Below, piece after piece: positions 1-61,057 of a DNA stretch of 64,000 nucleotides (positions are counted from its first letter, which is position 1; each line of letters starts with the position of its first letter). Source of the DNA: Cetorhinus maximus. Its lineage: Eukaryota. The DNA lies in the NCBI RefSeq assembly GCF_964194155.1, contig NC_135887.1, positions 48,422,001-48,486,000 on the forward strand. Reading direction: 5' to 3'. Both the position numbers and the translations under genes were made by a program. The notes under the pieces were generated by a model. That model was not told where the DNA came from and did no database searches. It saw only the letters and a program-made list of their open reading frames with translations.

Positions 1-412
1 AATTCTCAAGAAACTTGAATTACTAGGTTTCTTGTTCCCCCAATCTTATTGCTTTAGAACTTGACTGATGCCACAGTTATTTCCAGTCACCAGCAGCTCT
101 CCCAATTGATCCAAGACAAAGGTGTGTTAACAAGCCAATGAACCAATGTGCATTTTTCACCAGGAGCCACTGGATAATGATCAGATGTGGAAACCATGAT
201 TGCTTTTCACTGTCCTTGATAGCCCAGGGGCCCCAAATCCAATTACGGTTGCTCTGCTGCTACTGACTGGAAAAAGCAAATTCAGTACAAACCAGGAATT
301 AAATCAGAAATTTCCCAGTTCTTTGTGGGTCACAGGCTGCTACAATTTACCTCCAGTTCAGCAAGTTAAAGTGATCTTTAGTCACGATGAGGTACTCCTG
401 TAGAATGATAAT

Positions 413-1150: not shown

Positions 1151-2039
1151 ACACTGGGATCTTTATGCATGGTTATAAATTGGCCTTAGACAGCTTTTTA
1201 CTATGAATAGTTTTTCTCTATAATACTTCCCTGACTATTTTAAAAACTGATTTTTAAATCACAAGTGCTAGAATTCAGCACCGAATCCTTTCAAGTGAGA
1301 ATTGCTATGGAAACCAGCATTCTCTGGTTGAGCATGTACATTCCAGGCAACTCTTCTGCTCTGTTCTTTGAAAATGCCACTCCCGATCAGGCACACATGT
1401 TTTAATGATTTATAAACAGCCAAGCCAGGATCAGAAAATAAGAAAAATAAATTTAGTTAAGATTTTTCTGTTTAGAAAGCCAGTTAATTTTATGTCTGAT
1501 CACAGCTAAAGTTGTGTATGAGAATGTACTCGTAATGCTAAGGCCAATGAATAAACTGGTAATTTACTGACTCACATTAAGTATTTCCATCAATTTAATG
1601 CTAGCTCACCCTATGACCTAATGGGTGAAGGCTGCTCTGTCAATGAATCACACAGAAACAGGTTCTATAGTTGAGGGGGTCCTGTTCTTAATCCTTAACC
1701 AATAGCCTGTGTGGACAAGACTTGTGTGTGAATGTCAGTAAGGACAGGTTCAGGCTTGGATCTACTGTCCTTCAGGGTACAATGACCAGCTAACAGTCAC
1801 TGTCTGAACTCTCATAAGGAATGGTTAGTATCCTGAAAATGGTGGAGGGCATACAGTACTGATGGGATCATCTTATCCCAGCAATAATATGCATGGTGGG
1901 AGAGGAGCGAAGATCATACTGCTGGTAATTAAAGCAATTACATCATTTTAATACCTTCACACAGAGAGATAAGTTTTATAATGTACATCGAGATGTTGGC
2001 TTGAATACAAGTGAAAGGGAGTGAGATGGAAGCTTTCAT

Positions 2040-13807: not shown

Positions 13808-15647
13808 ATGGAGCTTGTAAGTGCTGAACATGGCAGGCGGGAGGGCAGGTCAGCGGGGCAGTTGGTCCTGTGTTTTTCCGATGAGTGTCTCGCTGTCCTC
13901 CTGGAGGAGGTGGCACTTGTCCTCAGGGATGAGAGGAGCCCCCCCTCAACTCACCAAAAATGCCTGGGGGGGAGGGGGGGGTGGCATCCAGGGTAAGCTC
14001 TCATGATGTAGTGAGGCACACATGGGTGCAGTGCCGTAAGTGGTTCAATGATCTCCTGCGATCGGAAAGGGTGAGTACTGTGTTGGCATGGGTCACTTAA
14101 CACAACAGTTAGGAGCCTCTCGCCCCAACCCCCTCCACACCTCAGTGTTCTTAGAGTGAGAGTGGCAAATGTTAATAAGGCAGCATCTGGTCAAGGGGTT
14201 GAGCCCTGGCTGCTTGGAATGAGTATCTTGCAGCTCCAGGACCATGAATCGGCTGAGCCCTGTGAGATATTCCTCAGGTGGGGTTGGCCAGGCTGCAATG
14301 GTGCTGCAGGTACAGGGTGGACTAATCAATGCTCCTCTGTCCTTTCAGGAGAAGACATCCCATAACAATGCAGAGAGGTTGGCGGAGGATCGTGCCACCT
14401 TCTAATCCTGAGTAGATATGAGGAGGCCCTGGAGCTGGAGAGGCGCTATACATCTTGGTCAACCGGCCGCGGTGAAGTTGGGGTGCCAGAGGGAGGTAAG
14501 AGTGCAGCGCACCAAGGTCAGAATGTCTGTAAGAGCAACCATTCCACTGTTGTCTCTATATTGATGTGAGCCTCAAACATGGAATCCCCATTGATAATGG
14601 AAAGATGAGGGCACCTTGATCTGGGTGCCAGGCATGCACAGTAACAGAATAATGACTTCAACTAATGACATGTTCTTGTTCGTCCTTTCAGGCTCATCAG
14701 CAGCCCATCGGAGTGAGGAGCCTGAAGGCCCAACACTGACCCCAGAGGACAGCAACCATGGAAATGCTCCTGAGTCACACTGTCTCAGCCAAGCAGGCAC
14801 CAGCGCAGATACCAGCACCTCAGTGGGCATTAGATTGGCAGATAGTATCTCTGTGCACAGCGGTGAGGGCACTTCACACTCGCTTGAGGTGCAGGCAGAG
14901 GCCGATAGTGCCCGGGGCGCCAGCAGTCAAAGGACTTCTGGGGACCAGGAACATGCTCAGTCGGTGGCTGATGATGTGCCTCTGGAGTCATCCCAGAAGA
15001 GGCAGATGCTCAATGTCCAGCAGGGGGTGTGGGAGGATCTGGCAGAGATACATGAGGGAATGCGCGCCAAGGTCTCCGCTGTGGAGGAGTCCTTGCGGAG
15101 CATGACCAGTGCAATGACCCTCATGGCCAAGTGCACTGCCTCCTCCACGGAGAGAGTGGCGACTCTCATGCAGAGGCTCCTCCAGAAGTTGCATCAGGGG
15201 TTCCTGGGGATGCGATCAGACCTGCAAGCCCTCACACTGGCAATAACCTCAGGTGGTCACTGTCAGTGTGGAAGATGGATTGAGCACCCAGTATCCCAGC
15301 TAGGTGCCCGTCCATCAATGGTGAGCAGGGAGGTCCAAAGCGACCCGTCGTTGGCGCACGAGCTGCTTATCGTCTCTGCAGGCTCCTCTCAGGGCGCTCC
15401 GGATGATGGCAGCAGCTCCTCTGCCTCTCTACCAGTAACTGTGGCATCTGATGAGGCTGCGGCGACTGGGGAAATGCCAGCCGTGGCACTGGCGGGGCCA
15501 GCACATGCTCCACGGGCCATAGGACGCCCGCCAAGGTCATCAAGGCCAACAGGACAGCACAGTAAGCAGGCTGTCTCCAATGTCGGTGTCGTTGAGGGTG
15601 GAGCAACTAGACGTAGCACCCGCAAGCGAAAACTTAAAGCACCTTAA
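13808..15647 (+). pseudogene. Harbinger Myb/SANT-like accessory protein; predicted exons 13808-14070, 14349-14495, 14692-15647
   Basis: FSDECLAVLLEEV..KNAW..VASRVS..RHTWVQCRKWFNDL. Donors gtgagt (14071) and gtaag (14496); acceptors cctttcag (14348, 14691). The last exon is open and ends in the basic NLS-like TRRSTRKRKLK. Exon 1 is frameshifted. Confidence 0.8.
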
Positions 15648-15976
15648 GCACAACACGGGTTTATCACTGGTGATATTTTTTCCCCCCACTTTTGTGTTAA
15701 ATATTATTTGGTGTGATGGATAACATCTTTCAATTTAATTTGTATTGTGTGTGTCAGGCACCACAGCATTAAATGTGTTTCTGTTCAACAAGCCTCTGGG
15801 TGCTTCATTAATCCTGCAGGTGCAGGGTAACCCATGATATTATGAGTGACTTGTTTGTCATTGAACTTAATTGAAATGGCAAACAGTACATGTTGTTCAC
15901 CAAGCAAATGTTCCTGTCAGGAATCGAATATGAAGCCTGCAGCCCTGGCATGGGGTGGTGGTTCTTATTTGGTAGG

Positions 15977-17151
15977 CTAGCTGAAGGAGCATTGGATCAA
16001 AGCCTCCAGGGTGTCCCTGCCTCCCTGGAGGTAAGCATCTATTCCCTTAGCGTTCTCCTGACCGTGCTCGTCCTTGGACTCTCTACTGGACTCATCGTCT
16101 GTTGCCAGAGCAGCTGCGTCAACATCATCTTCCTCCACTGCGTCACCACTTGAGTGCCAGATTGTGGAGAGCGCAGCATGCAACCACTATCAGTGACACA
16201 CGATCTGGGGGGGTCGGTATTGCAGTGTGCCCCTTGAACAGTCCAGGCATCAGAAGCGCATCTTGAGAAGACCTATGGCTCTCTCTACCACCGCCTTTGT
16301 GGAGGCATGGCTCCTACTGTTCTTGGATGGCAGAGGGGCGTCATGAGCCATCTTTTGAGGGGATAGCCCTTGTCATCCAGCAGCCATTCATCCAACCGTG
16401 CTGGAGCACTGAGGAGCTTTGGCACCTGAGCGTGTCTCAGGATGTAAGCATCATGGGAGCTGCCTGGGTACCTTGCACAGACTTGTAAAATCAGCATCCT
16501 CTGTTCATGGAGTGGAAGCCCTTCCTGTTGATGAAGGCACTGGGCTCACCTGCTGGCACCTCAATGGCCACATGTGTGCAGTCGATTGCACCCTGGATGC
16601 GGGGGAACCCAGCAATTGCTGCAAAGCCTCTGGCTCACTCTGCCTGGCTGGCTTCGTCTGTGCAGTAGTGAATGAAAGTTAATGCACGCCTGAACAGAGC
16701 GTCTGTCACCAGCTTGACAACTGTGGACAGCTGATTGGGAGACACCACAAAAATCACCCACTGACCCCTGGAAAGAGCCGGAGGCATAGAAGTTGAAGGC
16801 CACTGTGACCTTCAGCGCACTGGCATGGAAGTGTCCACCTACACAATCGGAGCTGATCTCAGGGCCTATCATCTGACAGATGGAGGTCACTGTCTCCATC
16901 AAGAGGCGGAGCCTCCTTCGGCATTGCACCTCAGACATATTGAGGTAGCTGCATCGCCGCCTGTAAACTCTGGCAGCACGATAGTGGCATCTTCTGCAGC
17001 CACTTCTGCCTTGGACTTCCTGTTGGCCCTGCACCTGTCCTCCCACAAGTCACTCCCTTGGAGGCTGAAAAGGGGCACCTGATCTCCTCCCCCTTCTGGT
17101 CCTCTCTTCCTTCTCAGTGGAGGTTCCTCCAGCGGAGACCACAATCCCCAT
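15977..17151 (-). pseudogene. Harbinger DDE transposase (HARBI1-like), disrupted
   Basis: Motifs FYASGSFQ, GAIDCTHV, NRKGFHS, ARYPGSSHDAYI, WLLDDKGYPLKRWLMTP, ERAIGLLKMRF and an acidic tail; in-frame stop and several frameshifts. Confidence 0.92.
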
Positions 17152-18223: not shown

Positions 18224-19490
18224 AAAACAAAAACAGAATTACCTGGAAAAACTCAGCAGGTCTGGCAGCATCGGTGGAGAAGAAAAGAGTCGACGTTTCG
18301 AGTCCTCACGACCCTTCAACAGAACTGAGTATAGTTAGGAGAGGGGTGAAATATAAGCTGGTTTAAGGTGGGGGGCGGGGGGGGTGGTGGTGGTTGTAGG
18401 GACAAGCAAGCAGTGATAGGAGCAGATAATCAAAAGATGTCACAGACAAAAGGATCAAAGAGGTGTTGAAGGTGGTGATATTATCTAAGAAAATGTGCTA
18501 ATTAAGAATGGATGGCAGGACACTCAAGGTACAGCTCTAGTGGGGATGGGGTGGAAAGACTGACAAGGTATTAGTTGTAGATTTAAAAATAATGGAAATA
18601 GGTGGGAAAAGAAAAATCTATATAAATTATTGAAAAAAACAAAAGGGAGGGGGAAGAAACAGGGTGGGGATGGGGGGAGGGAGTTTAAGATCTAAAGTTG
18701 TTGAATTCAATATTCAGCCTGGAAGGCTGTAAAATGCCTAGTCGGAAGATGAGGTGCTGTTCCTCCAGTTTGCGTTGGGCTTCACTGGAACAATGCAGCA
18801 AGCCAAGGACAGACATGTGGGCAAGAGAGCAGGGTGGAGTGTTAAAATGGAAAGCGACAGGGAGGTTTGGGTCTTTCTTGCGGACAGACCGCAGGTGTTC
18901 TGCAAAGCGGTCACCCAGTCTGCTTTTGGTCTCTCCAATGTAGAGGAAACCGCATTGGGAGCAACGAATGCAGTAGACTAAGTTGAGGGAAGTGCAAATG
19001 AAATGCTGCTTCACTTGAAATGAGTGTTTGGGCTCTTGGACAGTGAGGAGAGGGGAAGTAAAGGGGCAGGTGTTGCATCTTCTGCGGTTGCATGGGAAGG
19101 TGCTGTGGGAGGGGGTTGAGGTGTAGGGGGTGATGGAGGAGTGGACCAGGGTGTCCCGGAGGGAACGATTCCTGCGGAATGCCGCCGGGGGGGGTGAAGG
19201 GAAGATGTGTTTGGTGATGGCATCATGCTGGAGTTGGCGGAAATGGCGGAGGATGATCCTTTGAATGCGGAGGCTGGTGGGGTGATAAGTGAGGACAAGG
19301 GGGACCCTATCATGTTTCTGGGAGGGAGAAGGTGTGAGGGCAGATGCATGGGAGATAGGCCGGACACGGTTGAGGGCCCTGTCAACCACCATGGGTGGAA
19401 AGCCTCAGTTAAGGAAGAAGGAGGACATGTCAGAGGAACTGTTTTTGAGAGTGGCATCATCAGAACAGATGCGACGGAGGCGAAGCAACT
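18224..19490 (-). mobile_element. Inverted 3' copy of the same Penelope element (GIY-YIG endonuclease + tail)
   Basis: ORF 18685-19392 contains CNRRRCNTC and LVYCIRCSQCGFLYIGETK; reverse complement of ~21235-22515. Confidence 0.93.
18288..18326 (-). ncRNA. Minimal type I hammerhead ribozyme motif
   Basis: agtt-CUGUUGA-a-gggtc/gactc-GAAACGUC-gact in the Penelope 3' tail. Confidence 0.72.
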
Positions 19491-19555
19491 CCTGTTTGTG
19501 GATTTTGGGTAGGAGGTAGAAGCGGGCCGTCCGAGGTTGGGAGACTATCAGGTAT

Positions 19556-22520
19556 CTTGGACGGCCTGTTTCTACCTCCTATCCAAAATCCACAAACAGG
19601 ACTGTCCCAGCAGACCGATCGTGTCAGCCTGTTCCTGCCCCACGGAACTCATTTCTCCCTATCTTGACTCCATTCTCTCTCCCCTTGTTCAGTCCCTTCC
19701 CACCTACATCCGTGATTCCTCCTCTGACACCCTAAAACATATCAAGTGCAAAGGAACACAACTCCAACAACTCATCAACACCAACACCCATCCAGGACCC
19801 TCCACCCCTGCCTGTCCCTCTGTCCCCATCCCGTCTTCCAATCCCAGCCCCGGCCGTGTACTCACCATACCCCCTGACCTTCCCCTCTCCAACGCTGAAC
19901 GTCCAGTGCTCGGCAAAGGACTTAGTTTCATACCCTTACGCCCTCATCTCAATGAATTTCTGGCTCGGCATGATGCTGAACTCTTCTTCCGCCGCCTTGG
20001 TCTCCGTGCTCACTTCTTTGGGCAGGAGTCCTCTCCCCGTTCAACAGATCCTTTTACCCACCTCCAATATTCTCCCTCCACCTGGACCCCTCCCTTTGGA
20101 TTCTTACCTTCTCTTGATCTTTTCATTGAGAACTGTCAGCGTGACATTAATCGTCTCAATTTCTCTGCTCCTCTCACCCATTCTAACCTGTCTCTCTCTG
20201 AACTTGCTGCACTCCATTCTCTGAGGCACAACCCTGACATTGTCATCAAACCCGCTGACAAGGGTGGTGCTGTTGTTGTCTGGCACACTGACCTCTACAT
20301 CGCAGAGGCTGAGCGTCAATTCGCAGACACTTCCTCCTACCTCTCCTTGGACCTTGACCCCACCACTGAACATCAAGCCATTGTTTCCAGAACTGTCACT
20401 GACCTCATCTCCTCTGGAGATCTTCCTTCCACAGCTTCCAACCTGACAGTCACCCAACCTCGGATGGCCCGCTTCTACCTCCTACCCAAAATCCACAAAC
20501 AGCACTGTCCCGGCAGACCGATCGTGTCAGCCTGTTCCTGCCCCATGGAACTCATTTCTCGCTATCTTGACTCCCTTCTCTCTCCGCTTGTCCAGTCCCT
20601 TCCCACCTACATCCGTGATACCTCTGACACCCTATATCACATCAACAATTTCCAGTTCCCTGGCACCAACCGCCTCCTCTTCACATTGGACGTCCAATCC
20701 CTCTACACCTTCATCCCCCACCAGGAAGGTCTGGTGGCTCTCCGCTTCTTCCTCGAACAGAGGCCCGAACAATCCCCATCCACCAACTACTCTCCTCCGT
20801 CTGGCTGAACTTGTTCTCACACTGAACAATTTCTCCTTTAACTCGTCTCATTTCCTCCAAATAAAAAGTGTGGCTATGGGTACCCGCATGGGCCTGACTC
20901 TTTATGGGGTATGTGGAACATTCCTTGTTCCAGTCCTACTCCGGCCCCCTCCCACAACTCTTTCTCCGGTACATCGATGATTACTTCGGTGCTGCTTCAT
21001 GCTCTCGTCTGGACCTGGAAAATTTTATTAATTTTGCTTCCAATTTCCACTCCTCCATCATTTTCACATCGTCTATCTCTGATACTTCCCTTCCCTTCCT
21101 TGACCTCTCTGTCTCAATTTCTGGTGATAGACTGTCCACCAATATCCATTACAAGCCTACCGGCTCCCACAGCTACCTCGACTACAGCTCCTCACACCCC
21201 GCTTCCTTTAAGGACTCCATCCCATTCTCTCAGTTTCTTCGAGTCAGTCGCATCTGTTCTGATGATGCCACTTTCAAAAACAGTTCCTCTGACATGTCCT
21301 CCTTCTTCCTTAACCGAGGTTTACCACCCACGGTGGTTGACAGGGCCCTCAACCGTGTCTGGCCCATCTCCCGCGCACCCGCCCTCACACCTTCTCCTCC
21401 CTCCCAGAAACATGATAGGGTCCCCCTTGTCCTCACTTATCACCCCACCAGCCTCCGCATTCAAAGGACCATCCTCCGCCATTTCCGCCAACTCCAGCAT
21501 GATGTCACCACCAAACACATCTTCCCTTCACCCCCCCGGCGGCATTCCGTAGGGATCGTTCCCTCCGTGACACCCTGGTCCACTCCTCCATCACCCCCTA
21601 CACCTCAACCCCCTCCCACGGCACCTTCCCATGCAACCGCAAAAGATGCAACACCTGCCCCTTTACTTCCCCTCTCCACACCATCCAAGGGCCCAAACAC
21701 TCATTTCAAGTGAAGCAGCATTTCACTTGCACTTCCCTCAACTTAGTCTACGGCATTCGTTGCTCCCAATGCGGTTTCCTCTACATTGGAGAGGCCAAAC
21801 GCAGACTGGCTGACTGCTTTGCAGAACACCTTTGTTCTGTCCACAAGCATTACCCAGACCTCCCTGTCGCTTGCCATTTCAACACTCCACCCTGCTCTCA
21901 TACCCACATGTCCGTCCTTGGCTTGCTGCATTGTTCCAGTGAAGCTCAATGCAAACTGGAGGAACAGCACCTCATCTTCCGACTAGGCACTTTACAGCCT
22001 TCTGGACTGAATATTGAGTTCAACAATTTTAGATCATGAACTCTCTCCTCCATCCCCACCCCCTTTCTGATTTTTTTCCCCCTTTTTGTTTTTTCCAATA
22101 ATTTATATAGATTTTTCTTTTCCCACCTATTTCCATTATTTTTAAATGTATTTCCATCCATTGTTTTATCTCTACCTTTTAGCCTTTTTCCATTCCTTCA
22201 CCCCACCCCCACTAGGGCTATCTGTACCTTGCTTGTCCTGCTTTCTACCCTATATTAGCACATTCCTTTAGATAATATCACCACCTTCAACACCTTTTTG
22301 TCCTTTTGTCTGTGACATCTTTTGGTTACCTCCACCTATCACTGGCCCTCTATCCAGCTCCCTTGTCCCAACCCCCCCCTTAAACCAGCTTATATTTCAC
22401 CCCTTTTCTATTTTTCCTTAGTTCTGTTGAAGAGTCATGCGGACTCGAAACATTAACTGTGCTCCTTTCCACAGATGCTGCCAGACCTGCTGAGTTTTTC
22501 CAGGTATTTTCGTTTTTATT
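19556..22520 (+). mobile_element. Penelope-like retroelement (RT + GIY-YIG), 5'-truncated and frameshifted
   Basis: IVIKPADKGGAVVV, FYLLPKIHK, LDVQSLYT, VAMGT, LRYIDD, LVYGIRCSQCGFLYIGE..EH..HF..LNIEF; 3' tail carries a hammerhead motif. Confidence 0.93.
22420..22458 (+). ncRNA. Minimal type I hammerhead ribozyme motif
   Basis: agtt-CUGUUGA-a-gagtc/gactc-GAAACAUU-aact; stem II is perfectly paired. Confidence 0.68.
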
Positions 22521-36650: not shown

Positions 36651-37919
36651 GGAAACAAATATTTTCGGTCAGAACTTGCAGTCGTTTTAAAAGACAATCG
36701 TGCAATGAATTGGCCATTATATAATTACAAAAAGACCAAGAGTAGGGAGTGATTATAAATTAACTCTGGGAGTACGTGAAATTCATAAACCACTTAAAGC
36801 CATCAGATTATATTATAACAGGTATCTAGTGTTCTGCTAATACTGTAATTTTTATGCAGGTAAAATATAAATAGCAATGCATAACTGAAAAAACAAATTT
36901 AGGAAGGCTTTTGACGCTGCCTACTCTGATCCTGTTTTCTACAAAATGAGAAGGCCTCTTAAGAGAAAAAGCCAAAGCAATGACAGTAATGCAATCTTGA
37001 TGCGTTTGAACTCCAAACATTAAAAAGGCCCCCCAACAGAGATGAAGCGAGCTTGTTTACAATGAAGCAGATGTCCGGAGATAATATTAGCTAGTACAGG
37101 GGCCATCACAAACATTGTTGGGGGGGGGGGGGGGGGGGAGGGGTGTGGAGAGGAGGAGGAGGAGAACATATGAATCTAATTCGCTGCATTCTTGAATTAT
37201 AAGGAAGGAAAATTCCCATTATATGCAATGTCTTTTTCATTGCTGAAAATGCAAAAGGGACATATGCGAGCTACACATACCTATGGGATGGATTAGTGGG
37301 AAATGCAGAGTGAGGTGTGTTACTGAGCCACACACACCAGGAGGCTCCATGCTTGACTCCAAATCTGTACTTAGTTGAACTCAGTTGGGACAGTAGTTGG
37401 AACATTGCAAACTGCCTCAGATCCTCTTTGGCCAAGAGGTAAAAGAGAGTGCCAAGATTCCTACTTTTGGCTCCCTGACATTGCTGGTACAGTAGATGCA
37501 ACTTAAACCTGCAGGCTCCTCATAAAGCCCAAAGCTACATTTCAGTGCCATATGTGCTTCACTACTGTACTGCAATTGCAGACTGCCATAGCAATAATAG
37601 CCTAGTAGATGTTGCACTGAAGGGTACAAACTGCAAACCAGCTTGAGCAGAGAACTTGGGAAGATGGGAGTGATGCATGAGGGGAATGGGTGGGTGCTGA
37701 TGAGAAGCTCATGGGAACAGACTAAGGTCAGTTGGTGCAGCCACAGCAGGCAGCATTTTAAATGGACAAGTGTGGGCAGTTTGCACATGGAGTTTTAAAT
37801 TGACCAGTTTGGGAAAGATAAATCCAATTTTCTCCATTTTCCTAACTGATAACTAGTGGACCTTTTTGGAACCATTGACATGGTGTGGAATAAGGACAGC
37901 ATCGAGCTCAGCTACAATG

Positions 37920-39247
37920 TGATATGATCCCAGCTGAAGTTATTACTGGACAAGCCAGATCCCAGGGTGGAAACCGGCTTGATAGATCCTAACTTTTATT
38001 TTTTGTTTAGATACACGGAGAGTGGCTACTGAAGAGAGTCAAAGGAGTTAGCTGATGAACTTCTAACAAAAGGATAAAACATTAAGCAACCAAAAGATTA
38101 ACTATATTACAATACTCCAACCACAATTAAACCTTTACAGATATATACAGGTTTGCAAGGATAACACCAGTTACAAAAGCTAACTTATACTCTAGTATTC
38201 ACACTAAGTACACAGCACATGTAAACCAATAGACGACCTGTGGTCAGGCACACCATACTCTGAAACCAAGTGCCAGATGCGACCCCAAACAGATGCTATG
38301 GATCTCTAATCAATTCTCCCCAGACGCTTGACAGACCATGAGCCAACTGGTCTCACTGAACTCACATGAAGGTTTCTAATCTCCACCCCTGAAAAACTTG
38401 CTTTGGAATCTTCTCCCTAACAATGCTTTCGCTCAGATGACTTTCACAAGGGTCCACCTCCGAGGTTTCGAATTCTCCTTTTGATGTTCCTCTCCCCTGG
38501 ATCACCACAAGCTTTCTTCCAAGCACACACACACACTGATTCAACTGTGCCAACAGAACACCACTGCTTCGCATGGCCATAGTAAAGAGTTACGGCCCTT
38601 CAGCTGTCTCCTTGAATTTTCTGGCTTCTTGCAAGCCAATATTGCTTTAAATCTGCATCCTGCAGCTTCTCTCTTTAAGCTTGGAGCCTTTCTCTGCTCC
38701 TCACTCAACTTTACTTAACAAGGCCTTTTCCAGATTCCTCTTCATTCCCTTTGACTTCTCGGGGCCTCTCTTCTTCTGTTCTTTGGGGAAACCTGCTTCC
38801 TGTAACTCCCTCCTGTCCAGCTTCTTTTGGCAGCTGGTTTCAACTTTAGTTTGGGACTTGCTATCTGTCTCTTCTCCTATGCTGGCTCTGCTGGTAACTC
38901 CTTTTAACTTTAGAGCACAATTACCAACTGAGCTCAGGCTGGTTCTGGTTCTTGCGTGTGTGCATGCATGTCGCCTCTCTCTCTGGACCCTTGTTGCAGC
39001 ACAGTTTTTTCTACTTTCTTTTAACTTCCCTAAACCACTACCCCACCCTCCTCCTCCCGATAACACAACTCTCCACTTCAAGGATCATAAAACGCATTAA
39101 AAATGCAGGCATCTTTCAAAGTGAAACTAAAACTCAGGTTTCAACCTATTAACCCACAAATACAGAAATACAAATGAACTTTGGACATTAAAGCTAAAAC
39201 TCATTCCTAGCGCACACAAATACACATACTGTCTCTATTTCCTAACA
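37920..39247 (-). repeat. 3' LTR of the TPR-carrying element
   Basis: TG...CA termini on the minus strand; preceded by the PPT aaggggaggg. Confidence 0.92.
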
Positions 39248-40003
39248 CCCTCCCCTTGCAAGAAAACAAGCTTCACAACAATGAAGAATTCTTTACAATG
39301 GCCTTACATTCGCTTCACATAAACTTATCATAAACCTCTAAGAATAGCTTATTACATTCTATTTACTCAAATGTGGTATCTCATTTTGATTTATCAAAGT
39401 CAAAATGGCATTTTTGTGCATTAGCATCTCATTTCTTTTCTGGTCAAAATCCCTTTTAGGATGTTGAGATGCTTTTTATGTTCGCACAGAAGGGTTTCGT
39501 ATTCCTGCTTGGTTTGATCTTTGAACTTATGATCTTGTTGTTTCTCCCAATCCCATTTCGAACAGGTCTTTTCCACTTCTCATTTGAGCAGCATCAATTA
39601 TTTTCTCCCTTTGGAGTTTCATAGTTCATTCTAACGCTTGAGCTCTTTTGTATAATCCATGAACCATATCATGCCTCTTCTCCACAGGTTTTGAATGGTC
39701 TTTTGCAAACTGCCCACTTGCCTGGATTCCAGCTGCTGTATTTCGTGTATTAGCATGGACAAGCACTTTTAAATCAGTGTCACTGGTCGTCGATCTTTCC
39801 AGATCTTTTTGCAACTTCAGTCCTTTTTGTTGACACTTAATTCCCAATTCTGCAGGCACTTTAGTTGCTTTCATATTGCTTATTACTGAAGTCAATACAT
39901 CAGTAATGTTACTTGGATCAGTTCTTTGCTGAACTACACCACAATTTGGCAAGGAATTTTTATTGACAGGAACAACTTCAGAACTGTGACACACTATATC
40001 ACA

Positions 40004-40400
40004 CATCTCCTCTTTCATTTTCTCCAGATTGCTTTCAAGTTCAAGAATCTGATTGTTCTTTTCATGGCGAAGTTCTAACAGTTCGTTAGTTTTGGTTTTT
40101 AATTCTGCAACCAATTATTCTGATGTACCAACAATTCCTTTTCTTCAAGGGATTTTCCACAATATTTCATAGCGACTTCTTCTGCTTGAAGTTCATCAAG
40201 TTTTAACTGAAGATTGACTTTTGTGAAGTTTGCTTCTACAAGGTGACCATTTAGACATTTCAAGTCCTCAGTCAAGTGTCCTACTTTCCACGACTGCTTC
40301 TCAATTGTTCTCACCAATTCTCTTTCATTGGCAAACTTTTCTTTTATGCATGAAAGTTGGTTTTCTATGTTAATCAGGTTTTCCTTCAATTGCTTATCAG
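40004..40400 (-). pseudogene. TPR: Transduced intronless fragment of nucleoprotein TPR (N-terminal coiled coil, roughly human aa 100-235), with one frameshift near 40110
   Basis: [39 protein letters not shown] / ELKTKTNELLELRHEKNNQILELESNLEKMKEEM matches recalled TPR [76 protein letters not shown]. Confidence 0.88.
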
Positions 40401-40479
40401 CAATAAGCATCTCATGTTGGCCACAGTAATTTTCTGAAGTTTAAGACCAGTATGATCAGCTGTCTGCTGCAGTACAGTC

Positions 40480-40854
40480 ATTGCCACATTACTTTCTCCA
40501 CCAGCCAAATCATTACCCAGAATAAACTCCACCCCTTCAATAGGTGATTTAGGAATAATTCCCACCGTAACAATTCCTTTTACAAAGTGACTTTGTGGCT
40601 TCATAAATTCCATTAATGCCTCTAAGTAACAGTTTTATGAAGGAAAAAGTATCCAGAACACAAACTGTATCAACAGCCACCTTCAATGATTGAGCTGCCC
40701 CAGTATCTCTTAAAATTTTGATTTCTTTACTTATTTTGTTGGAGGAGTAAGGTAACACTTCTCCCTTTGAAACAAAACATCCAGAACCTCTAATAACCTG
40801 ACTTCCTTCACCAGTAAAAAAAACAGAGGAATTCTCCAGACTATCCTGAACCAT
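40480..40854 (-). pseudogene. Retroviral-type aspartic protease, frameshifted
   Basis: IKILRDTGAAQSL active-site motif and C-terminal VEFILGNDLAG motif. Confidence 0.88.
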
Positions 40855-40979
40855 ACCCCCCCTTCCCTGTATGTTCTGAAGAAATATGTTTCACCTGTAC
40901 CACTGCTACAGTTTAAACAACCATTTCCTTTTCTGATGCAACCTTTCCTGAGGATTCCTAGGCGTTCCTACTACTGCAA

Positions 40980-42200
40980 TAGTTCTACCATTTAATCTCC
41001 AGTAATCGGCCCGAATGTATCCCGCCTTGTCTAATGGAAAGACTTGGGCCCTCAAATGTCACTTCACCCTCAGTGCCCTCCTTTCTGATCTGAGAAGAAG
41101 CTTCCTGGGAATTCCCAACTGTCCCTTCTCTTCCCTAGCTACTTGCCTTCCTGTCTTCTGTCCCTCTCAGGTTTGTGGGGATGACAGAAAAAGGGTTTGG
41201 AGTTATGGACCAGTTCATAATCGTCAGCCATCTCCACTGTCTGTCTCTGTGTTTTAACCCTCTGGTCTTCAACATGGGTTCTAACTACAGGAGGAAGTGA
41301 ATCTTTAAATTCTTCTAAGAGAATTATTTCCCTAGGAGCTTCATATGTTGTCTCAACCTTTAATGCTTGTATCCTGCAGTCAAAATTACTCTACCTGCTC
41401 AAACTCAATACAGGTCTGCCCAGACTGTTTCTTTATATTCCAAAATTTCTGCCTGTATGCCTCAGGGACCAACTCATACGCACTAAGAATAGACTTTTTT
41501 TAATGCGTTATAATCCACAGTAACCTCTTCTAACAGCGGTGCATCAAACTTTTAAGCTCTACCCGCCAACCTACTCTGTTAGAGCAATGTCCAGATCTCT
41601 TTCGGCCACTTCATTTGCTTAGCTATATTTTCAAACAAGATAAAAAATGCCTCTACATCTCTTTCCTCAAACTTTGGAAGGGCTTGCACAAATTTAAACA
41701 TCTCCCCACTGGGCTTTGGGTTGGAGATAGTCATTTCACCATCAGAATCATCCTCAGCATCTGAGGCCCCGTTTTTAAAGTCCAGCCTTTTAACCTGGTA
41801 TTCCTTTTCTTGTTCCTTCTCTCTTCCCCCCATTGCTAACTTTTCTCTCTGGAGGTCACATTCTCTTGCCTTATCTCACTTCTGTCTTTCTACTCGCTCC
41901 CTTTGAAATGCTCTCTCTTTTTCCCTTTCCTCTCTTTCTTTTTCCTCCAATTCAAGTTTTTTAATTTGCTACTGAATCTTAGCCAATTCAATTGCCTCAC
42001 CCGTTGGAGAATGTGGTCTCTCTGGTATCCCTTCCAATTTCAAATGCTGTGCTATTATGTCAACAATATTTGCTTTCCTCACCCCTTTGGGTAATTCTAA
42101 CTCCAACTTAGCCACCAATTCCATTTGCTTGCTCTTGGTACTTTTTGTAAACCGGTCAGGGTTACATCTTCCAACTGTAAAAAAAAAGCTGCAGCAACTT
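40980..42200 (-). pseudogene. Disrupted gag (coiled coil, capsid-like domain, decayed zinc knuckle)
   Basis: MELVAKLELELPKGVRKANIVDIIAQHL; FVQALPKFEERDVEAFFILFENIAKQMKWPKEIWTLL; ILSAYELVPEAYRQKF; stops and frameshifts present. Confidence 0.85.
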
Positions 42201-42359
42201 CCAAAGTTACTTTGAATTCCAATCTGTATAATATACCTCACAGCAACTCCAACTCCTATGTCCAACCTTAGTACCTCCAGGTACTCATTAGAGGATTCAC
42301 AGATCCCACCAATGTTCAAGGATTTCCAATCCCACAAGAGGTCCCACCTTATAACAATA

Positions 42360-42377
42360 ATCTCGCACGAGCCCCCA
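42360..42377 (-). promoter_or_regulatory. Primer-binding site, tRNA-Pro
   Basis: TGGGGGCTCGTGCGAGAT versus the canonical tRNA-Pro PBS TGGGGGCTCGTCCGGGAT (16/18), 3 nt from the LTR. Confidence 0.9.
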
Positions 42378-42380
42378 CTT

Positions 42381-43715
42381 TCTTATGATCCCAGTTGATG
42401 TTACTATTGGACAAGCCAAATCCCGGGTTGGAACCCGGCTTGATAAGATCCTAGCTATTTTTTGTTTAGATACGCCAAGAGTGGCTACTGAACAGAGTCA
42501 CAGGAGTTAGCTGATGAACTTTTAACAAAAGAATAAAACATCTATTAAGCAACCAAAAGATTAACTATATTTCAATACTCCTTCACCCACAACTACATCT
42601 TTACAGATAAATACAGATTCGTAAGGAAAACACCAGTTACGAAAGCTACCTTATACTGTAACGTTCACAGTAAGTACCCAGTCCAAATAAATCAATATAT
42701 GATCCGTGGTCAGGCACACCACACTCTGAAACCAAGTGCCAGATGCGACTCCAAACAGATACTATGGATCTCTCACCAATTCTCCCCAGACGCTTGACAG
42801 ACCATGAGCCAACTGGTCTCACTGAATCTCCACTCCTGAAAAACTTGCTTTGGAATCTTCTCCCAACCAATGCTCTCTCTCAGATGCCTTCCACAATTGT
42901 CCACCTCCACAGTTTTGAATTCCCCTTCTGATATTCCTCTCCCCTGGATCACCATGTGCATTCAAGCTTTATTCCACACACACACACTCTGGCTCAGCCA
43001 TGCCAATAGAACACCACTGCTTCACATGCCCATAGTAAAGAGTTACAGCCGTTCAGCTGTCTCCTTGGATCTTTTGGCTTCTTGCAAGCCAATATTGCTT
43101 TAAATCTGCTTTCTGCAGCCTCTCCCTTTAAGCTTGGAGCCTTTCTCTGCTCCTCACTCTTAACTTCACTTGTCAGGACCTTTTCCAGATTCCTCTTCAT
43201 TCCCTTTGACGAGAAGGTCTTCTCGGGGCCCTCTTTTTGTGTCCTTTGTTGGGGAAACCTGCTTCCTGCAACTCCCTCCTGTCCAGCTTCACTTGGCAAT
43301 CAGCTTCAACTTTAGTTTGGAACTTGCTATCTGTCCCTCCTCCTACGCTGCCTCTGCTGGCAACTCCTTTTAACTTTAGAACACAATGACAAACTGAACT
43401 CAAACTATTTTCGGTTTGTGTGTGTGTGTTCTCTCTCTGGACTCCCTGTTGCTAGGTAACAGCACACTTTTTTTTCTACTTTGTTTTAACTTCCCTAAAC
43501 CACTACCCCCCTTGACAACGCAACTCTCCAAGTCAATTGTCATAAAACTCATTAAAAATGCAGGCATCTTTTAAAGTGAAACTAAAACTCAGGTTTCATC
43601 CTATTAACCCACAAATACAGAAATACAAATGAACCTTGGAGATTAAAGCTAAAACTCATTCCTAGCACACACAAATACACATATAACTACTTAAAACTGT
43701 ATCTACTTCCTAACA
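42381..43715 (-). repeat. 5' LTR of the TPR-carrying element
   Basis: Colinear with 37920-39247; lies immediately next to the PBS. Confidence 0.92.
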
Positions 43716-45039
43716 AACGCCCTTCATGGTCAGACAGCCTGCCAGCACTGGCTTTCTAAACTCACATTAGAAGAGTGGACATTTGGACAGGGTATTGATT
43801 ACAGCTTATTTATTTGCGGATCCATAAACTCCACAAGAAGCAGAACCTTCAAGAAGGAAAACAAACAGGTGTGTCGCAGCTGTGTTCAATTTTAGAGGCA
43901 GATAGTGGCAGTTTTAGTGAAGAAGTACATTGAATAAGACCATCTCAGGGACCTATAATTTATATGAAGTCACGGATGAAGCAACCATATCACGCCCCTC
44001 CTCCCTGTGTCAGCAAGTTATTTACAACTCCCAATGACCAGAGAAAGGTTGCAGCAATTCATTCAGGTTTCTCTCACTCGTCCCAACAGGCTTTCTGCAG
44101 TGCTGCAAAAAGGCTAGTATAATGTGATCGCCATGGTAATGCCAGCCTGCCACCAACATTGGCCTTTAACTGAGAAGGGCGGGCGGCTCCAGCTGTGAAT
44201 AAGCTCTGCAGCAAATAATTTTTTCCCCCAAGAGGTTACTTGGGTCCCTCAGGCTTAACCAGACTGACTGTTCAATTTTCGTTGCTGTTCTGTTGCTATG
44301 GCTACAGCAAATTGTTTAACAGTAACCACATTTGGGGTCCCGAGTTTTGCAAGAAAAGCTATCATAGACGTAATTTTTCATCCAGTCACTGGCTTTATAT
44401 AAAATCTGTAAAAAAAACATCGTAATCTGTTAATCTGTCACTGGAAATCAAGATAAATTATTCCACATGAATTTCTGTTAATGTGGAGCTAGCACATTGC
44501 AACTGGCTTGAAGGAAAATGATCAGGAACCAGTCACAGATCGACTAAAATTACTCAGAACACATTTTTAAACAGAAATAAACAGTTCAAAAATCCTTTTT
44601 TTTTTAAAAAGGGTAGCTACCAAACTGAATATTTGGAATCCATTTTCTATTCTTAAATTACATTGCGTGTACATCATGACAGTGCAAATTGTCACTCTTC
44701 CCTCTCCCCAGATTGTCAGATTTTGGTCAGTCTGTTCATTACCATATTTTGAACGATTTCTATCTGTTACAACTTCTCGTATATCATGTTTGTTACATAT
44801 ACAACAACAGCATCTTGCATATATACAGCACTTCAATTATTAAAACCGAGGCACTTCACAGAAGAGTAATCAACCAAGATGTGACAATGAGCCAGAAAAC
44901 TTTGATTGAAAAGTGTCTTTAATATGAAACATCCCAAAATGCTTCACAGGAGTATTACAAAATATGACACCCAAGCCACATAAGGAGATATTAGGTCAGA
45001 TGACCAGGCTGGGGGCAGGTGGGGAGAATAGCGTGTGGA

Positions 45040-47386: not shown

Positions 47387-50300
47387 TGTAGCAACTAGAT
47401 GTATTATCCTCCCTCCTATCAATCACTCATCATGTGATGTGATTACAGTGACTTTGGCCAATAAGCTTATGGGTAATCCTGTCGGCGGGGCTTCTGACAG
47501 AGAGATCGCAACTAGCGTGCAAGCACTTCTACTTGTCTCCTAAAGTTTAGCTTTTTCTTCACCAAACCTACTGCTCTATCAAGGTATTACTTTTGGTGAC
47601 GAGGATAAAACTGGCTTCTGCTGTGATTGATGTGGTTGATGTGAGCAAAACTAAGTTGAACAATACTAACAGTCAAGCCGCTGTTTGGAAGAACCAATTC
47701 ATACAATGTTAACATTGAAGACTGGAGTCAGTATGTTGATAGACTCGGGTTCCATTTCACCGCGAACAAGATTACTGAAGAAAAACGTGAAGTTATCCTG
47801 CTGAGTGCATGTGGAAGCAAAACATATAACCTGATTCAAAACCTGACTGCCCTGAATGCGCCCAGTTCTAAGTCGTACAGCGAATTAGTGGAACTCATGA
47901 AATTGCACTTTCAGCCAAAGCTGTCTGTGATCATGCAGCGCTTGAAGTTTAATTCAAGAGTTCATGTCCTGGGAGAGTCCATTGCCACCTTTGTGGCAAC
48001 TGTGAAACAGTTAACCGAGTACTGAGAGTTTGGGGATGCCTTGAATGATACGCTGCGGGACAGACTTGTATGCGGAGTCAAGGACGACACCTACAGCGCT
48101 GCTTGAGAGCCAAATCCGACAATGATTTCAAGCATGGCCTAATACTTTCTCTTGCTTTGGAAAATGCCACAAAAGACTCTCAGGCTTTGCAGCATGTGGA
48201 TATTGGCACCATACTCCATGTTGGGTAGGAACCTGCCCTGAGCGTGGCACCAAGAACAGAATAGCAGATTTTAAACACGATTCTATGCCCATTACACGAA
48301 GACTTAGCAACCCTAAATGATAACATGCCAGCTGATAGGATACGCATTTGCTACAGATATGCAGGAAATCATGGAGCAGACATTTGTAGATTCAAAGAGG
48401 CAGAGTGCAATTATTGCTACAGGAAAGGACAGCTGGTTAGGCATTGCAGAACAAAGGATAGGCAAACAGCAAAACAACAAACAAATCTGTTGAGCTAACT
48501 GATACAAAGGCTGAGGCTGCTACCACTGATATACACTCTATCATGTGACTACTGTTAAATCTGAGCCCACAAGAGTGCCTCAGGGCAAGTGAATGGCAAG
48601 CAACTGCAGATGGAGGTGGATACTGGTGCTTCAGCTACTGTTGTTGGGGAGCACACGTTCAAGTACCTCAGTGAAGGGGGTTGGCCTTTGATATTGGAGT
48701 GGATGCCCACCAAGCTGAGAACTTACACTGGAAAATCCATTCAGGTCAAAGGCATTGCTGCTGTCCCAGTCTGCTACAAACAACAGACAGCCCAACTGCC
48801 TGTGATAATTGTAAAGGGGGAGGGGCCCAGTCTTTTGGGTCGAGATTGGCTGCAAAAAATTAAAATTGACAGGTCAGAAATACTCCATTTGAAGTCCGAT
48901 GGAATTCCAGAGCTCTGGAAGAAATATGACACTGTTTTTCAAGACAAAATGGGAAAACTGAAGAGCATGCAAGATAAAATGCACGTCGATCCCCAGGCAG
49001 CATCACGTTTCTTCAAAGCCAGACCACTGCCTTACTCACCAAAAGAAAAAGTGGAAGCAGAGTTGTGCAGGTTGGAAAACCTGGGAATAATTCAGCCTGT
49101 TCAGTTTTCTGGGTGGACTGCACCCATAGTTCCAGTTGTCAAGACAGACCAGCCTATACGCATATGCCGTGACTACAAATAGTCAACAAAGCAGCCAAGT
49201 TAGACAAATACCCCACTCCTACAATCGATGAGTTGTACGCCAAGTTAGCAGGAGGCAAGTCATAGACAAAACTAGGCACGAGTCATGCCTATCAACAATT
49301 GGAATTGGAAAACACGTCAAGGGAATACGTGACTATTAATACCCATAAAGGCCTCTACCAGTACACCCGATTACCTTTTGGAGTTTCATTAGCATACGCT
49401 ATTTTTCAGCGAACCGTGAAGAGTCTCCTGCAGGGACGTCCACATGTGGTTGTGTACTTAGATGACGTTCTCATCACTGGGCAGACTGAAGCTGAACATT
49501 TAGCCAACCTTGAGGAAGTGGTAAGATTTATGGAAGCAGGTGTGTGTTTCAAGCAAGAAAAATGCACATTTCACACATCGGAGGTAACCTATCTGGGTCA
49601 CAGAGTGGATGCTATGGGGTTGCATCCTGATGAAGACAAGGTTCAAGCAATTAAAAATGCACCGTCACCCTCTAATGTGACAGAGCTTAAATTTTTCCTA
49701 GGTATGATTAATTACTATAGTCGTGTTTCACCTAATTTATCCACTGGCACCACTGCATTTGTTGCTGAGGAATAACCACCACTGGTCATGGCGTTCACAG
49801 CAAGGTGAAGCCTTTGTAATAGTGATGAAACTGCTTCATTCATCATGCTTGTTGGTGCATTATGACCGACCTAAAGAGCTAATGTTAATGTGTGATGCTT
49901 CTCCTTATGGTGTAGGAGCCGTTCTATCACATCAAATGGAGGACGGATCAGAAAGATCCATTGGCTACATTTCAAGAACACTTTTCCAAGATGATAAGGG
50001 CTACTCTCAGTTAGAAAAAGAAGGATTATCAGGTTTACTTAGTGTCAAGAAGTTCACCAATTCCTACACGGGCAACATTTTACAATTGTAACTGACCATA
50101 AGCTGCTGACAGGTTTGTTCAGCGAAGACAAAGACATCCCGCCTACAGCTTCAGCGAAATCCAACGTTGGGCTTTGATGCTATGAGCTCACGAGTACACA
50201 TTCATGTACGGCCCTGTCTTGCATATAGCCAATGCAAATGCATTTGGTCGTCTTCCGTTACCAGTAGCTTTGTCAATACACCCGTTCCACAAGAGTTAAT

Positions 50301-57938: not shown

Positions 57939-60900
57939 GGAGGAGGCGAGGCAAAACCGGTATTGTCACTGGGCTAGTAATCCAGAGACACGGGTTCGAA
58001 TCCCACCACGGCAGATGGTGGAATTTGAATTCAATAAAAACCTGGAATTAAAAGTCCATGAAACCATTGTCGATTGTTGTTAAAAACCCACCTGGTTCAC
58101 CAATGGTAATCTCCCGTCCTTACCTAGTCTGCAATGACTCTTAAATGCCCTCTGAACTGGCCTAGCAAGCTACTCAGTCGTAACAAACTGCTACAAAGTC
58201 ACAAAACCGAGTTGAAACCGACGGACCACCTGGCATCAACCTAGGCAGCGGAAACGACAATGGCAATCACAGCCCCGTCGACCCTGCAAAGTCCTCCTTA
58301 CGCACATCTAATGCCAAAATTGGGAGAGCTGTCTCACAGACTAGTCAAGCAACAGCCAGATATAGTCATCCTCACGGAATCATACCTTATAGATAATGTC
58401 CCAGACTCCACTATCACCATCCCTGGGTATGTCCTGTCCCACCAGCAGAGGTGGTGGCACAGTGGTATGGTCAGGAGGGAGGTGCCCTGGGAGTCCTCAA
58501 CATCGACTCCAGACCCCATGAAGTCTCATGGCATAAGGTCAAAGGTGGGCGATGAAACCTCCTACTGATTACCATGTACCGCCCTCCCTCAGCTAATGAA
58601 TCAGTGCTCCTCCATGTTGAACATCACTTGGAGGAAGCACTGAGAGTGGCAAGAGCACAGAATGTACTCTGGGCGGCAGACCAGGAATGGCTCGGTAGCA
58701 CCGAGCTGGCCGAGTCCTAAATGACATAGCTGCTAGACTGGGTCTGTGGCAGGTGGTGAGGGAACCAACAAGAGGGAAAAACATTTATCCTGACCAACCT
58801 GCCTGCCGCAGATGCATCTGTCCATGACAGTATCGGTAGGAGTGACCACCGCACAATCATTGTGGAGACCAGAAGTCCCGCCTTCACATTGAGGATACCC
58901 TACATCGTGTTTTGTGGACTATAGATCGAGCAACTCAAGACTGGCCATCCATGAGACACTGTGGACGATCAGCAGCAGCAGAATTGTACTCGAGCACACT
59001 CTGTAACCTAATGGCCCGGCATTTCCCCAACTCTGCCATTACCATCAAGCCAGGGTATCAACCCTGGTTCAATGAAGAGTGCGGGAGGGTATGCCAGGAG
59101 CAGCACCAGGCACACCAAAAAATGAGGTGTCAATCTGGTGAAGCTATAAACACAAGACTACTTGTGTGCCAAACAGCATAAGCAGCAAGTGATAGACAGA
59201 GCTAAGCGATCCCATAACCAATGGATCACATCTAAGTTCTGTAGTCCTGTCACATCTCGTTGTGAATGGTGGTGGACAATCAAACAACTCACTGGAGGCG
59301 GCGGCTCCACAAATATCCCCATTCTCAATGATGGAGGAGACCAGCACAGCAGTGCAAAAGATAAGGCTAAAGCATTCTCGACAATCGTCAGCCAGAAATG
59401 CCGAGTGGCTGATCCATTTCAGGTCCCCAGCATCAAAGGTGCCAGTCTTCAGCCAATTCGATTCACTCCACGTGATATCAAGAAACTGCTGAAGGCACTG
59501 GATACTGCAAAGGTTATGGACACTGACAATATTCTGGCAATAGTACTGAAGACTTGTGCTCCAGAACTTGTTGCGCCCCTAGCCAAGCTGTTTCAGTACA
59601 GCTACAACAGTGGCATCTACTTGGCTATGTGGAAAATTGCCCAGGTATGTCCTGTACACAAAAAGCTGGACAAATCCAACCCAGCCAATTACCGCCCCAT
59701 CAGTCAACTCTCGATCATCAGTAAAGTAATGGAAGGACTCATCAACAGTGCTATCAAGTGGCACTTGCTTAGCAATAACCTGCTCATTGATGCCCAGTTT
59801 GGGTTCCGCCAGGGCCACTCAGCCCCTGACCTCATTACAGTCTTGGTTCAAACATGGATGAAAGAGCTGAACTCCCGAGGTGAGGGGAGAGTGACTGCCC
59901 TTGACATCAAGGCAGCATTTGACTGAGCATTGCATCAAGGCGCCTCAGCAAAATTGGAGTCAACGGGAATCAGGGGGAAAACTCTCCACTGGTCGGAGTT
60001 ATACCTAGCACAAAGGAAGATGGTTATGGTTGTTGGAGGTCAGTCATCTCAGCTCCAGGACATCAATGCAGGAGTTCCTCAGTGTAGTATCCTAGGCCCA
60101 ACCATCGTCAGCTGCTTCATCAATGACCTTCCTTCCATCATAAGGTCAGAAATGGGGATGTTCGTTAATGATTGCACAATGTTCAGCACCATTCGCGACT
60201 TCTCAGACATTGAAGCAATCCGTGACAAAATGCAGCAAGACATGGACAATTTCCAGGCTTGGGCTGACAAGTGGCAGGTAACATTCATGCCACACAAGTG
60301 TCAGGCAATGACCATCTCCTACAAGACAGAATCCAAACATCGCCCCTTGATGTTCAATGACATTACCATCACTGAATCCCCCGCTATCAACATCCTGGGG
60401 GTTACCATTGACCAGAAACTGAACTGCACTAGTCACATAAATACTGTGGCTACAAGAGCAGGTCAGAGGCTAGGAATCGTGTGACGAGTGACTCGCCTCC
60501 TGACTCCCTAAAACCTGTCTACCATCTACAAGGCACAAGTCAGGAGTGTAATGGAATACTCCCCACTTGCCTGGATGAGTGTGGCTCCCACAACACTCAA
60601 GAAGCTGGACACTGTCCAGGACAAACTAGTCCCCTTGATTAGCACATCCACAAAAATTCACTTCCTCCACCACCGACGCACAGTAGCAGCAGTGTGTACC
60701 ATCTACAAGATGCCCCGCAGGAATTCACCAAGGCCCCTTGGACAGCACCTTCCAAATCTACGACTGCTGCCACCTGGAAAGATAAGGGCAGCAGACAGAT
60801 GGGAACACCACCACCAGGAAGTTCCCTTCCAAGTTACTCACCATCCTGACTTGGAAATATATTGCCATTCCTTCACTGTCACTGGGTCAAAATCCTGGAA

Positions 60901-61057
60901 CTCCCTTCCTAACAGCACTGTGGGTGTACCTACACCACATGGACTGCAGTGGTTCAAGAAGGCAGCTCACCACCACCTTCTCAAAGGCAACTAGGGATGG
61001 GCAATAAATGCTGGCCCGGCCAGTGAAGCCTATGTCCCGTGAATGAATAACAAAAAA
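57939..61057 (+). mobile_element. Near full-length CR1/L2-group LINE with a tRNA-like 5' head and ORF2 only (APE + RT), disrupted
   Basis: Box B ggttcgaatcc at 57993-58003; QQPDIVILTESYL (APE); NPANYRPIS, QFGFRQGHS, ALDIKAAFD, GVPQCSILGP (RT); 3' end aataaatgctgg..gaatgaataacaaaaaa. Confidence 0.9.

Follow-up and report, generated by a model that had tools for sequence, protein, structure and literature searches.

A non-autonomous Gmr1-like LTR element of Cetorhinus maximus carries spliced TPR mRNA in frame behind its protease

Capture of TPR mRNA by an LTR element

We analysed a window of 64,000 nucleotides from the Cetorhinus maximus genome (contig NC_135887.1, positions 48,422,001 to 48,486,000), and unlabelled positions below refer to this window. 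Our data indicate that its minus strand holds, at 37920-43715, a Gmr1-like Ty3/Gypsy long terminal repeat (LTR) element, not a retrovirus, which is non-autonomous and complete although decayed, and that this animal LTR element captured spliced mRNA of the nuclear-pore protein TPR behind its protease, in frame. We favour, with moderate confidence, a helper-dependent Gmr1-like element built by serial template switching, in which the captured host sequence (the cargo) is a frame-compatible coiled-coil tail replacing integrase (IN), reverse transcriptase (RT) and RNase H (RH).

A sequence-only reading of the window had placed an intron-free TPR segment at 40004-40400 (approximately residues 100-235) and proposed that a helper-dependent LTR family had transduced it as spliced mRNA. 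The genome's own TPR gene lies on contig C18, with exons set by AG/GT ends, and alignment to it crosses four of four exon junctions without introns within coding sequence (cds) positions 310-713: exon 3|4 at 40362, exon 4|5 at 40268, exon 5|6 at 40164 and exon 6|7 at 40006. Identity to spliced host TPR is 72.5% over 109 nt (cds -17..98) and 77.4% over 385 nt (cds 310-713), and a short block, cds 263-270, is also present in the window copy. The TPR assignment and the intron-free junctions were therefore correct, while the extent proved larger, 39993-40502, including the start of exon 1. Exon 1 is joined to exon 3 through two internal deletions rather than at splice sites, and the second deletion (39 nt) lies between AAGGAAA repeats. 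At the protein level, 61/93 amino acids (aa) agree with host residues 104-198 and 28/40 aa with 198-237, and the residues captured in the window's family are TPR 1-33, 88-90 and 104-237.

We found that the best protein match is TPR. The Nucleoprot-TPR profile matches the window with an E value (E) of 1.4e-8, over the Pfam cut-off, and a protein search with the frame of a sister copy returned 11 matches, all of them bird and fish TPR. Generic coiled-coil similarity is ruled out by these TPR-only matches, the profile scores and the match to host exons. A search of solved structures with 40102-40440 gave antibody noise only. Furthermore, the insert is multicopy and not confined to the window (40/40 scored DNA candidates match), its joints are common to the copies, and neither poly-A nor a target duplication of its own was seen around it, which together rule out a late processed-pseudogene insertion in one copy and bear out transduction of spliced TPR mRNA. 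Words of 5-6 letters common to both sides stand at the two joints, GC(A/G)GGC at the 5' joint and ATGGA at the 3' joint. The TPR part of the window copy is frameshifted, as had been noted, near 40418 and 40109. The proposed single Gag-protease-TPR frame was found intact elsewhere: locus L019 reads through from gag in a natural open frame of 669 aa, broken further on, and L020, L021, L022 and L029 have natural open frames across protease and TPR.

Element architecture

The features of the element are as follows, from its 5' to its 3' side.

43716-43719, target-site duplication on the 5' side, AACG on the plus strand (3/4 letters equal to the other flank)
42381-43715, minus strand, 5' LTR, starting TGTTAG
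42360-42377, minus strand, tRNA-Pro primer-binding site, 16/18 letters equal to the 3' end plus CCA of the genome's tRNA-Pro(TGG)
41000-42124 (start approximate), minus strand, gag, interrupted by several stops and by frameshifts and made up of a coiled coil rich in E/K/R, a SCAN-type capsid (41207-41466) and a CCHC knuckle (41004-41045)
40503-40790, minus strand, broken aspartic protease with a DTG motif at ~40707 (RVP E 0.017 in sister copy L019)
39993-40502, minus strand, captured spliced TPR mRNA: cds -17..98 (exon 1), 263-270 and 310-713 (from the end of exon 3 through exons 4-6 into the start of exon 7)
39668-39992, minus strand, in-frame spacer of 325 nt / 108 codons, common to TPR-less, CEP152-bearing relatives
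39397-39667, minus strand, older capture, a CEP152 coiled coil (approximately residues 930-1045 of pig CEP152), broken in the window copy
39248-39257, minus strand, polypurine tract adjoining the 3' LTR
37920-39247, minus strand, 3' LTR, ending ..ATCA
37916-37919, target-site duplication on the 3' side, AATG on the plus strand

The bounds proposed from sequence alone (LTRs, primer-binding site, polypurine tract, target-site duplication) held up, with one mismatch in the 4-bp target duplication (AATG / AACG) and two in the primer-binding site. Duplications of 4 bp also flank sister copies L067 (4/4) and L042 (3/4). The order gag, protease, coiled coil, polypurine tract was likewise right, although the second coiled coil, that of the centrosome protein CEP152, had been missed. 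Approximately 260 nt before the polypurine tract (near 39364) are missing in the window copy and present in most sister copies. The primer site is shared with the pol-bearing copy L181. As a separate observation, 53/75 exact matches of the tRNA-Pro 3' motif fall on a single contig (G000:C32, 8.9-21.0 Mb), a large dispersed tRNA cluster.

The SCAN match (PF02023) is under the Pfam cut-off in the window (E 1.2e-5) and over it in L019 (E 1.1e-8). The window protease resembles four Gmr1-like polyproteins (E to 4e-11), and in the databases gag and protease have their relatives among SCAN-bearing Gypsy proteins, of which many also contain integrase and RT families. These four polyproteins match gag and protease only, with no match below ~40455, and 25 pol-bearing copies from the genome gave zero translated matches to 39250-40520 at E<=0.01; one tblastx run had shown a match extending to 39974, which the comparison with the 25 copies did not reproduce. 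The claim of an interior free of polymerase and integrase is thus well founded, and since IN and RT-RH were not found there we assign the element as a non-autonomous derivative rather than an autonomous Gmr1-like member. The spacer at 39668-39992 gave no Pfam or protein match and no match to the 25 pol-bearing copies.

An older CEP152 cargo

The CEP152 piece was found only by a full HMMER profile search over 1.84 billion proteins; Pfam, Atlas and a word-index protein search gave no match for it. The profile search returned 11 matches, with E 4e-8 to 8e-6 for CEP152. Of the ten looked up, one bears the name CEP152, a second clusters with a named CEP152, a third has the CEP152 Pfam family, and four are unnamed and CEP152-like by sequence; the other three, from Scyliorhinus torazame and Chiloscyllium punctatum, are annotated as hypothetical. 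The host CEP152 exon (contig C27) aligns with sister copies at 26-39% aa identity, mostly gap-free, with E to 9e-16 (window copy, E 0.015), and the alignment scores beat all 200 shuffles in 7/8 frames. At the DNA level the host exon has almost no match to the sister copies, so this capture is much older than that of TPR.

The three shark hypothetical proteins are closer to the element form than to host CEP152, which suggests that a CEP152-bearing lineage exists in other shark orders. Within the genome, 22 of the 33 distinct loci with the CEP152 piece are without TPR in the fetched stretch, and the five displayed read from protease directly into spacer. TPR had been proposed as the replacement of pol; because relatives without pol and without TPR already carry CEP152, TPR did not itself displace pol.

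Three annotated 'hypothetical' shark proteins (P0139, P0132, P0141) resemble element pieces. P0139 seems to join what we take to be a calcium-channel alpha2-delta exon to an element fragment, presumably through a gene-model error. L125 (G000:C14:38416132-38419206) holds a decayed CEP152-like stretch, 46% aa identical to the host exon and unlike the element, and is probably a separate pseudogene.

Mosaic origin and exchange between backbones

The window's family is a three-way mosaic of a helper-clade capsid, a protease-TPR part from a TPR lineage and a spacer-CEP152 part from a TPR-less lineage. The capsid core of L019 is 73-77% aa identical to those of the pol-bearing copies L078, L082 and L089, compared with 25-43% to older TPR or CEP152 lineages, whereas its protease is 45-68% identical to TPR lineages and 32-47% to pol-bearing copies. 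A simple insertion of TPR into a CEP152-bearing parent was considered and revised to this mosaic because the proteases differ.

We found that several of the 20 top TPR-profile loci fetched belong to other elements. Seven of the loci (L030, L032, L037, L038, L039, L041, L049) form one family with ~250-nt LTRs and a different primer site, whose gag we take to be Mag-like. This Mag-like family carries TPR pieces out to exon 12 (exons 3-12), placed after another coiled coil with 76-90% DNA identity to a 911-codon host exon (G000:C27:11440482-11443214, minus strand). The donor gene, with ankyrin exons upstream, is presumably UACA, judged from its motifs. First-look candidates for the UACA-like piece number 10,559, well above the number for TPR, which makes it probable that some families hold this piece alone. 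Further copies of the UACA-like/TPR family are L097-L102. Between its UACA-like and TPR parts lies a ~95-aa coiled coil (L098:3085-3369), possibly a fourth captured gene; among its 1804 candidates, of which 150 were scored and not inspected singly, no host source was identified. L043 (G000:C19:35245828-35253028) provides a third backbone: its oriented positions 2035-4586 are a 2.5-kb Mag-like element with gag, protease and 225-nt LTRs, in which TPR exons 2-6 directly follow the protease region.

Different lineages keep different TPR pieces, with exon 6 common to all, the lineages having been chosen by an exon-6 profile; the longest TPR relative, L051, reaches approximately residue 462. Deletions seen in the window's family and deletions seen in the Mag-like family are both present in L154, which points to a single TPR capture. 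In a tree of 207 columns, which is ladder-like, the Mag-like group forms one clade (100/99) nested among Gmr1-like copies. These sequences are most simply read as a single TPR capture that was later trimmed and recombined. They show that genes captured in this way can reach high copy number and cross from one element lineage to an unrelated one.

Copy number and age

Searching at the DNA level yielded 1575 candidates, and 40/40 of those scored match, at 79-83% identity apart from the window itself; a TPR-profile search gave 1687, with 150/150 scored over the cut-off and the host exon as the best. These numbers are first-look candidates, not copy counts, and point to a family of about a thousand copies or more. 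The LTRs are ~1.3 kb long, and the window pair is 89.5% identical over 1259 aligned bases (Kimura two-parameter distance 0.114). Across the 17 family copies with a usable pair, LTR divergence is 0.081-0.169, with a median of 0.127, pairs of other repeats and very short pairs having been left out. With the shark substitution rates that we assume, this divergence would put the copies at an age of at least tens of millions of years. The LTR-flank junction at 43650-43900 is also spanned by a contig of run X6, labelled as a different organism; over ~255 letters it shows 11 differences plus 4 gap letters, so the window insertion seems to predate the split from that organism.

A further set of matches (L024, L025 and the TPR-profile matches on C24, C215, C1272 and C1433 of G000) is near-identical, with equal scores, and lies beside zinc-finger genes; these copies arose by segmental duplication rather than transposition.

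Selection and reading frame

We compared nonsynonymous and synonymous variants between shared and private classes in a set of at most 44 copies chosen without the TPR profile (16-44 per segment), stratified by transition/transversion and with CpG columns left out. The odds ratio (OR) is 0.23-0.44 for gag (p<=2e-4) and 0.43-0.86 for the protease (p>=0.05), 0.83-1.10 for TPR, 1.0-1.24 for the spacer, 0.44-0.66 for CEP152 (p 0.07-0.21) and 0.6-1.0, not significant, for the LTR and untranslated region (UTR) control. A version restricted to 0-fold and 4-fold sites was underpowered. An unstratified test had indicated constraint on TPR (OR 0.41-0.55) and on CEP152, but the controls were also below 1, and we rejected the TPR signal, which was gone after stratification. 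These patterns, with the frame evidence below, argue that Gag was functional in cis and under clear purifying selection, that the reading frame is probably kept open through the cargo and that amino-acid constraint on TPR is at most weak.

One rival explanation is that the cargo is a neutral passenger, untranslated or irrelevant stuffer RNA, and that Gag alone matters. The OR of TPR and spacer and the within-family ratio of nonsynonymous to synonymous rates (dN/dS) of 0.83-1.07 are what such a passenger would give. We nevertheless regard it as unlikely, on the evidence of the frame. Both TPR joints are in frame, and the shared large deletions are all multiples of three, 7/7 (TPR 162, 39, 96, 117 and 159 nt; UACA-like 126 and 282 nt); the length of the 159-nt deletion depends on the bounds of exon 11, its remainder modulo 3 does not. 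No stop is shared by at least five copies among the shared variants of TPR (0/36) or CEP152 (0/35), compared with 16/258 and 12/198 among private variants in the same unbiased set. In contrast, shared indels in the LTR (15/16) and 5' UTR (9/11) are mostly not multiples of three.

Proposed mechanism and the role of the cargo

Building on the observed capture, splicing, frame, copy-number order, mosaic structure and selection on gag, we propose that repeated reverse-transcriptase template switching among co-packaged RNAs assembled the element. A pol-less lineage would have captured CEP152 mRNA long ago, and another lineage would have captured TPR mRNA (exons 1-12) once, just behind the protease; in-frame deletions would then have shortened the TPR cassette, and recombination would have carried it into other backbones. 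The family most likely made a Gag-protease-cargo polyprotein. Given that its capsid is of the helper type, we infer that this polyprotein co-assembled with helper Gag-Pol particles, which would have supplied IN and RT. Selection acted strongly on Gag and probably held the frame open to its end, while the cargo would have been weakly constrained and without a TPR pore function. Mouse foetal germ cells express TPR at a high level (PMC7618654), which may explain how TPR mRNA came to be co-packaged.

Several observations weigh against this proposal. In the three flanks tested we found no pol-bearing copy with the family's LTR, the autonomous partner that the sequence-only reading suggested seeking through the LTR. 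Only 3/32 inner branches of the tree are starred for support. Along the path from old to young lineages, TPR dN/dS is 0.42 (0.20-0.85) at a transition/transversion rate ratio (kappa) of 2 and 0.58 (0.30-1.17) at kappa 4, and the window LTR pair gives a kappa of ~3.6. Short direct repeats in the cargo coding sequences are spaced by multiples of three in 52-74% of cases, so in-frame deletions are partly expected by chance and the 7/7 count has p ~0.01-0.12. A 2-nt indel in TPR is shared by four copies and a 1-nt indel in the protease by three, and the spacer has several shared indels that are not multiples of three, in part reference-copy artefacts. Finally, translation, co-assembly and the role of the tail are deduced from sequence.

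We also considered that the coiled-coil tail is itself useful, with TPR, CEP152 and UACA-like helices oligomerising Gag or out-competing helper RNA in particle assembly, so that any long host coiled coil would be favoured. The three identified cargoes are all long coiled coils, in sense and in frame, and the TPR region of the window's family overlaps the N-terminal part present in the TPR-MET/RAF/TRK fusions (PMC3258255). Register is maintained across the CEP152 piece at 26-39% aa identity, with codon-position identities of ~0.53/0.62/0.41, and the OR of this piece is below 1; TPR dN/dS between lineages is 0.42-0.58, against 0.9-1.5 in the other two frames. However, no cargo test is significant within the family after the transition/transversion correction, CEP152 dN/dS between lineages is 0.79-1.10, and our searches were steered to coiled coils. 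Moreover, mRNAs for coiled coils share the A-richness of the element (A 0.39-0.42 compared with 0.34) and abound in codon-phased repeats, which by itself favours in-frame capture. We judge a useful tail to be rather improbable.

More improbable still is a counter-defence specific to TPR, in which the fragment would bind host TPR and interfere with its retention of unspliced RNA or its part in PIWI-interacting RNA (piRNA) silencing, or would tether particles to the pore. In its favour, TPR restrains export of unspliced RNA bearing the constitutive transport element (PMC3258255) and has a supporting role in the LINE1 methylation that piRNAs direct in mouse germ cells (PMC7618654), and the cassette lasted through a long succession of lineages and reached at least three backbones. 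Nup153 binding, however, needs TPR L458/M489, and N-terminal TPR fragments are largely cytosolic (PMC3258255); SPOCD1 binds TPR 775-877 (PMC7618654). The piece captured in the window's family ends at approximately residue 237 and has neither of these sites nor the C-terminal nuclear localization signal, so the pore tether suggested earlier is unlikely. In addition, the fragment drifted (dN to host 0.195) and did not track host TPR, different lineages keep different pieces, and high germ-cell expression would equally explain co-packaged TPR mRNA. With TPR one of three interchangeable coiled-coil cargoes, and without amino-acid constraint in the family, a TPR-specific decoy finds little support.

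A broader idea, which we hold tentatively and think doubtful, is that non-autonomous LTR elements in sharks repeatedly recruited long host coiled coils as an exchangeable, selected C-terminal module of Gag. If true, the module would have helped them to parasitise helper particles, or to reach or disarm nuclear-pore and centrosome scaffolds, and would have been traded between Gmr1-like and Mag-like elements over a very long time.

Comparison with known systems

Like the window element, acutely transforming retroviruses are replication-defective and carry cellular mRNA that replaces pol and is fused to gag. The window element differs from them in having no env and no kinase or signalling domain, and in being germ-line amplified and decayed. 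It does not itself belong with such retroviruses, whose origin the sequence-only reading invoked: its gag and protease relatives are SCAN-bearing Gypsy proteins, and its cargo is coiled coil only.

LTR-mediated retroposition is closer. The window element shares with LTR retrocopies the absence of introns, the flanking by one LTR element and the lack of poly-A or a duplication of the insert's own. The cases of Tan et al. 2016 (PMC5131818) are alike in having spliced host mRNA between LTR parts, sense orientation, multi-gene chimeras and non-autonomous reduplication, and they show microsimilarity at the switch points, of which the short words at the two TPR joints may be a counterpart. The survey gives 3-15 retrocopies per species, two of them at more than one site, whereas here a cassette gave rise to families of about a thousand copies, was fused in frame to Gag-protease over the long term and moved between Gmr1-like and Mag-like backbones. 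Gmr1-like elements (order SCAN-PR-IN-RT-RH; bioRxiv 10.1101/2025.03.03.638093) share the SCAN-type capsid, CCHC, DTG protease and tRNA-Pro primer site; in the window element host coiled coils take the place of the absent IN, RT and RNase H, and the whole is a mosaic of at least three lineages. LTR elements with extra open reading frames or trapped DNA in plants, rotifers and planarians also hold host-derived sequence between LTRs, sometimes replacing coding parts (PMC6431247). There the extra frames lie mostly downstream of pol or in autonomous elements, while here the donors are in the same genome and the fusion is directly behind the protease.

Our literature search, which covered sources other than subscription journals and repeat databases, found neither shark families of this kind nor any described capture of TPR, CEP152 or UACA, and a repeat-library entry may exist. 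The mechanism, template switching at microhomology, is already known; the scale, the serial nature and the shuffling across clades were not found in that literature. LTR capture of host mRNA in animals is mostly described as rare and low-copy, and here captured exons are fixed in very successful families. The genome is thus a large, datable record of gag-host fusions beside their donor genes, and it allows tests of selection on cargo, of capsid swapping to match a helper and of sequence movement between distant Gypsy clades. Furthermore, many 'TPR-like', 'CEP152-like' and 'UACA-like' annotations in shark genomes are element copies, and such copies could yield small RNAs against the three host genes.

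Outside the element the window is repeat-rich. Judging by their motifs, we take 14598-17049, 18685-22039, 48565-49775 and 59150-60994 to be, respectively, a Harbinger-like element, Penelope-like RT/GIY-YIG pieces in tandem, the remnant of a Gypsy pol and an RT that is L2/CR1-like.

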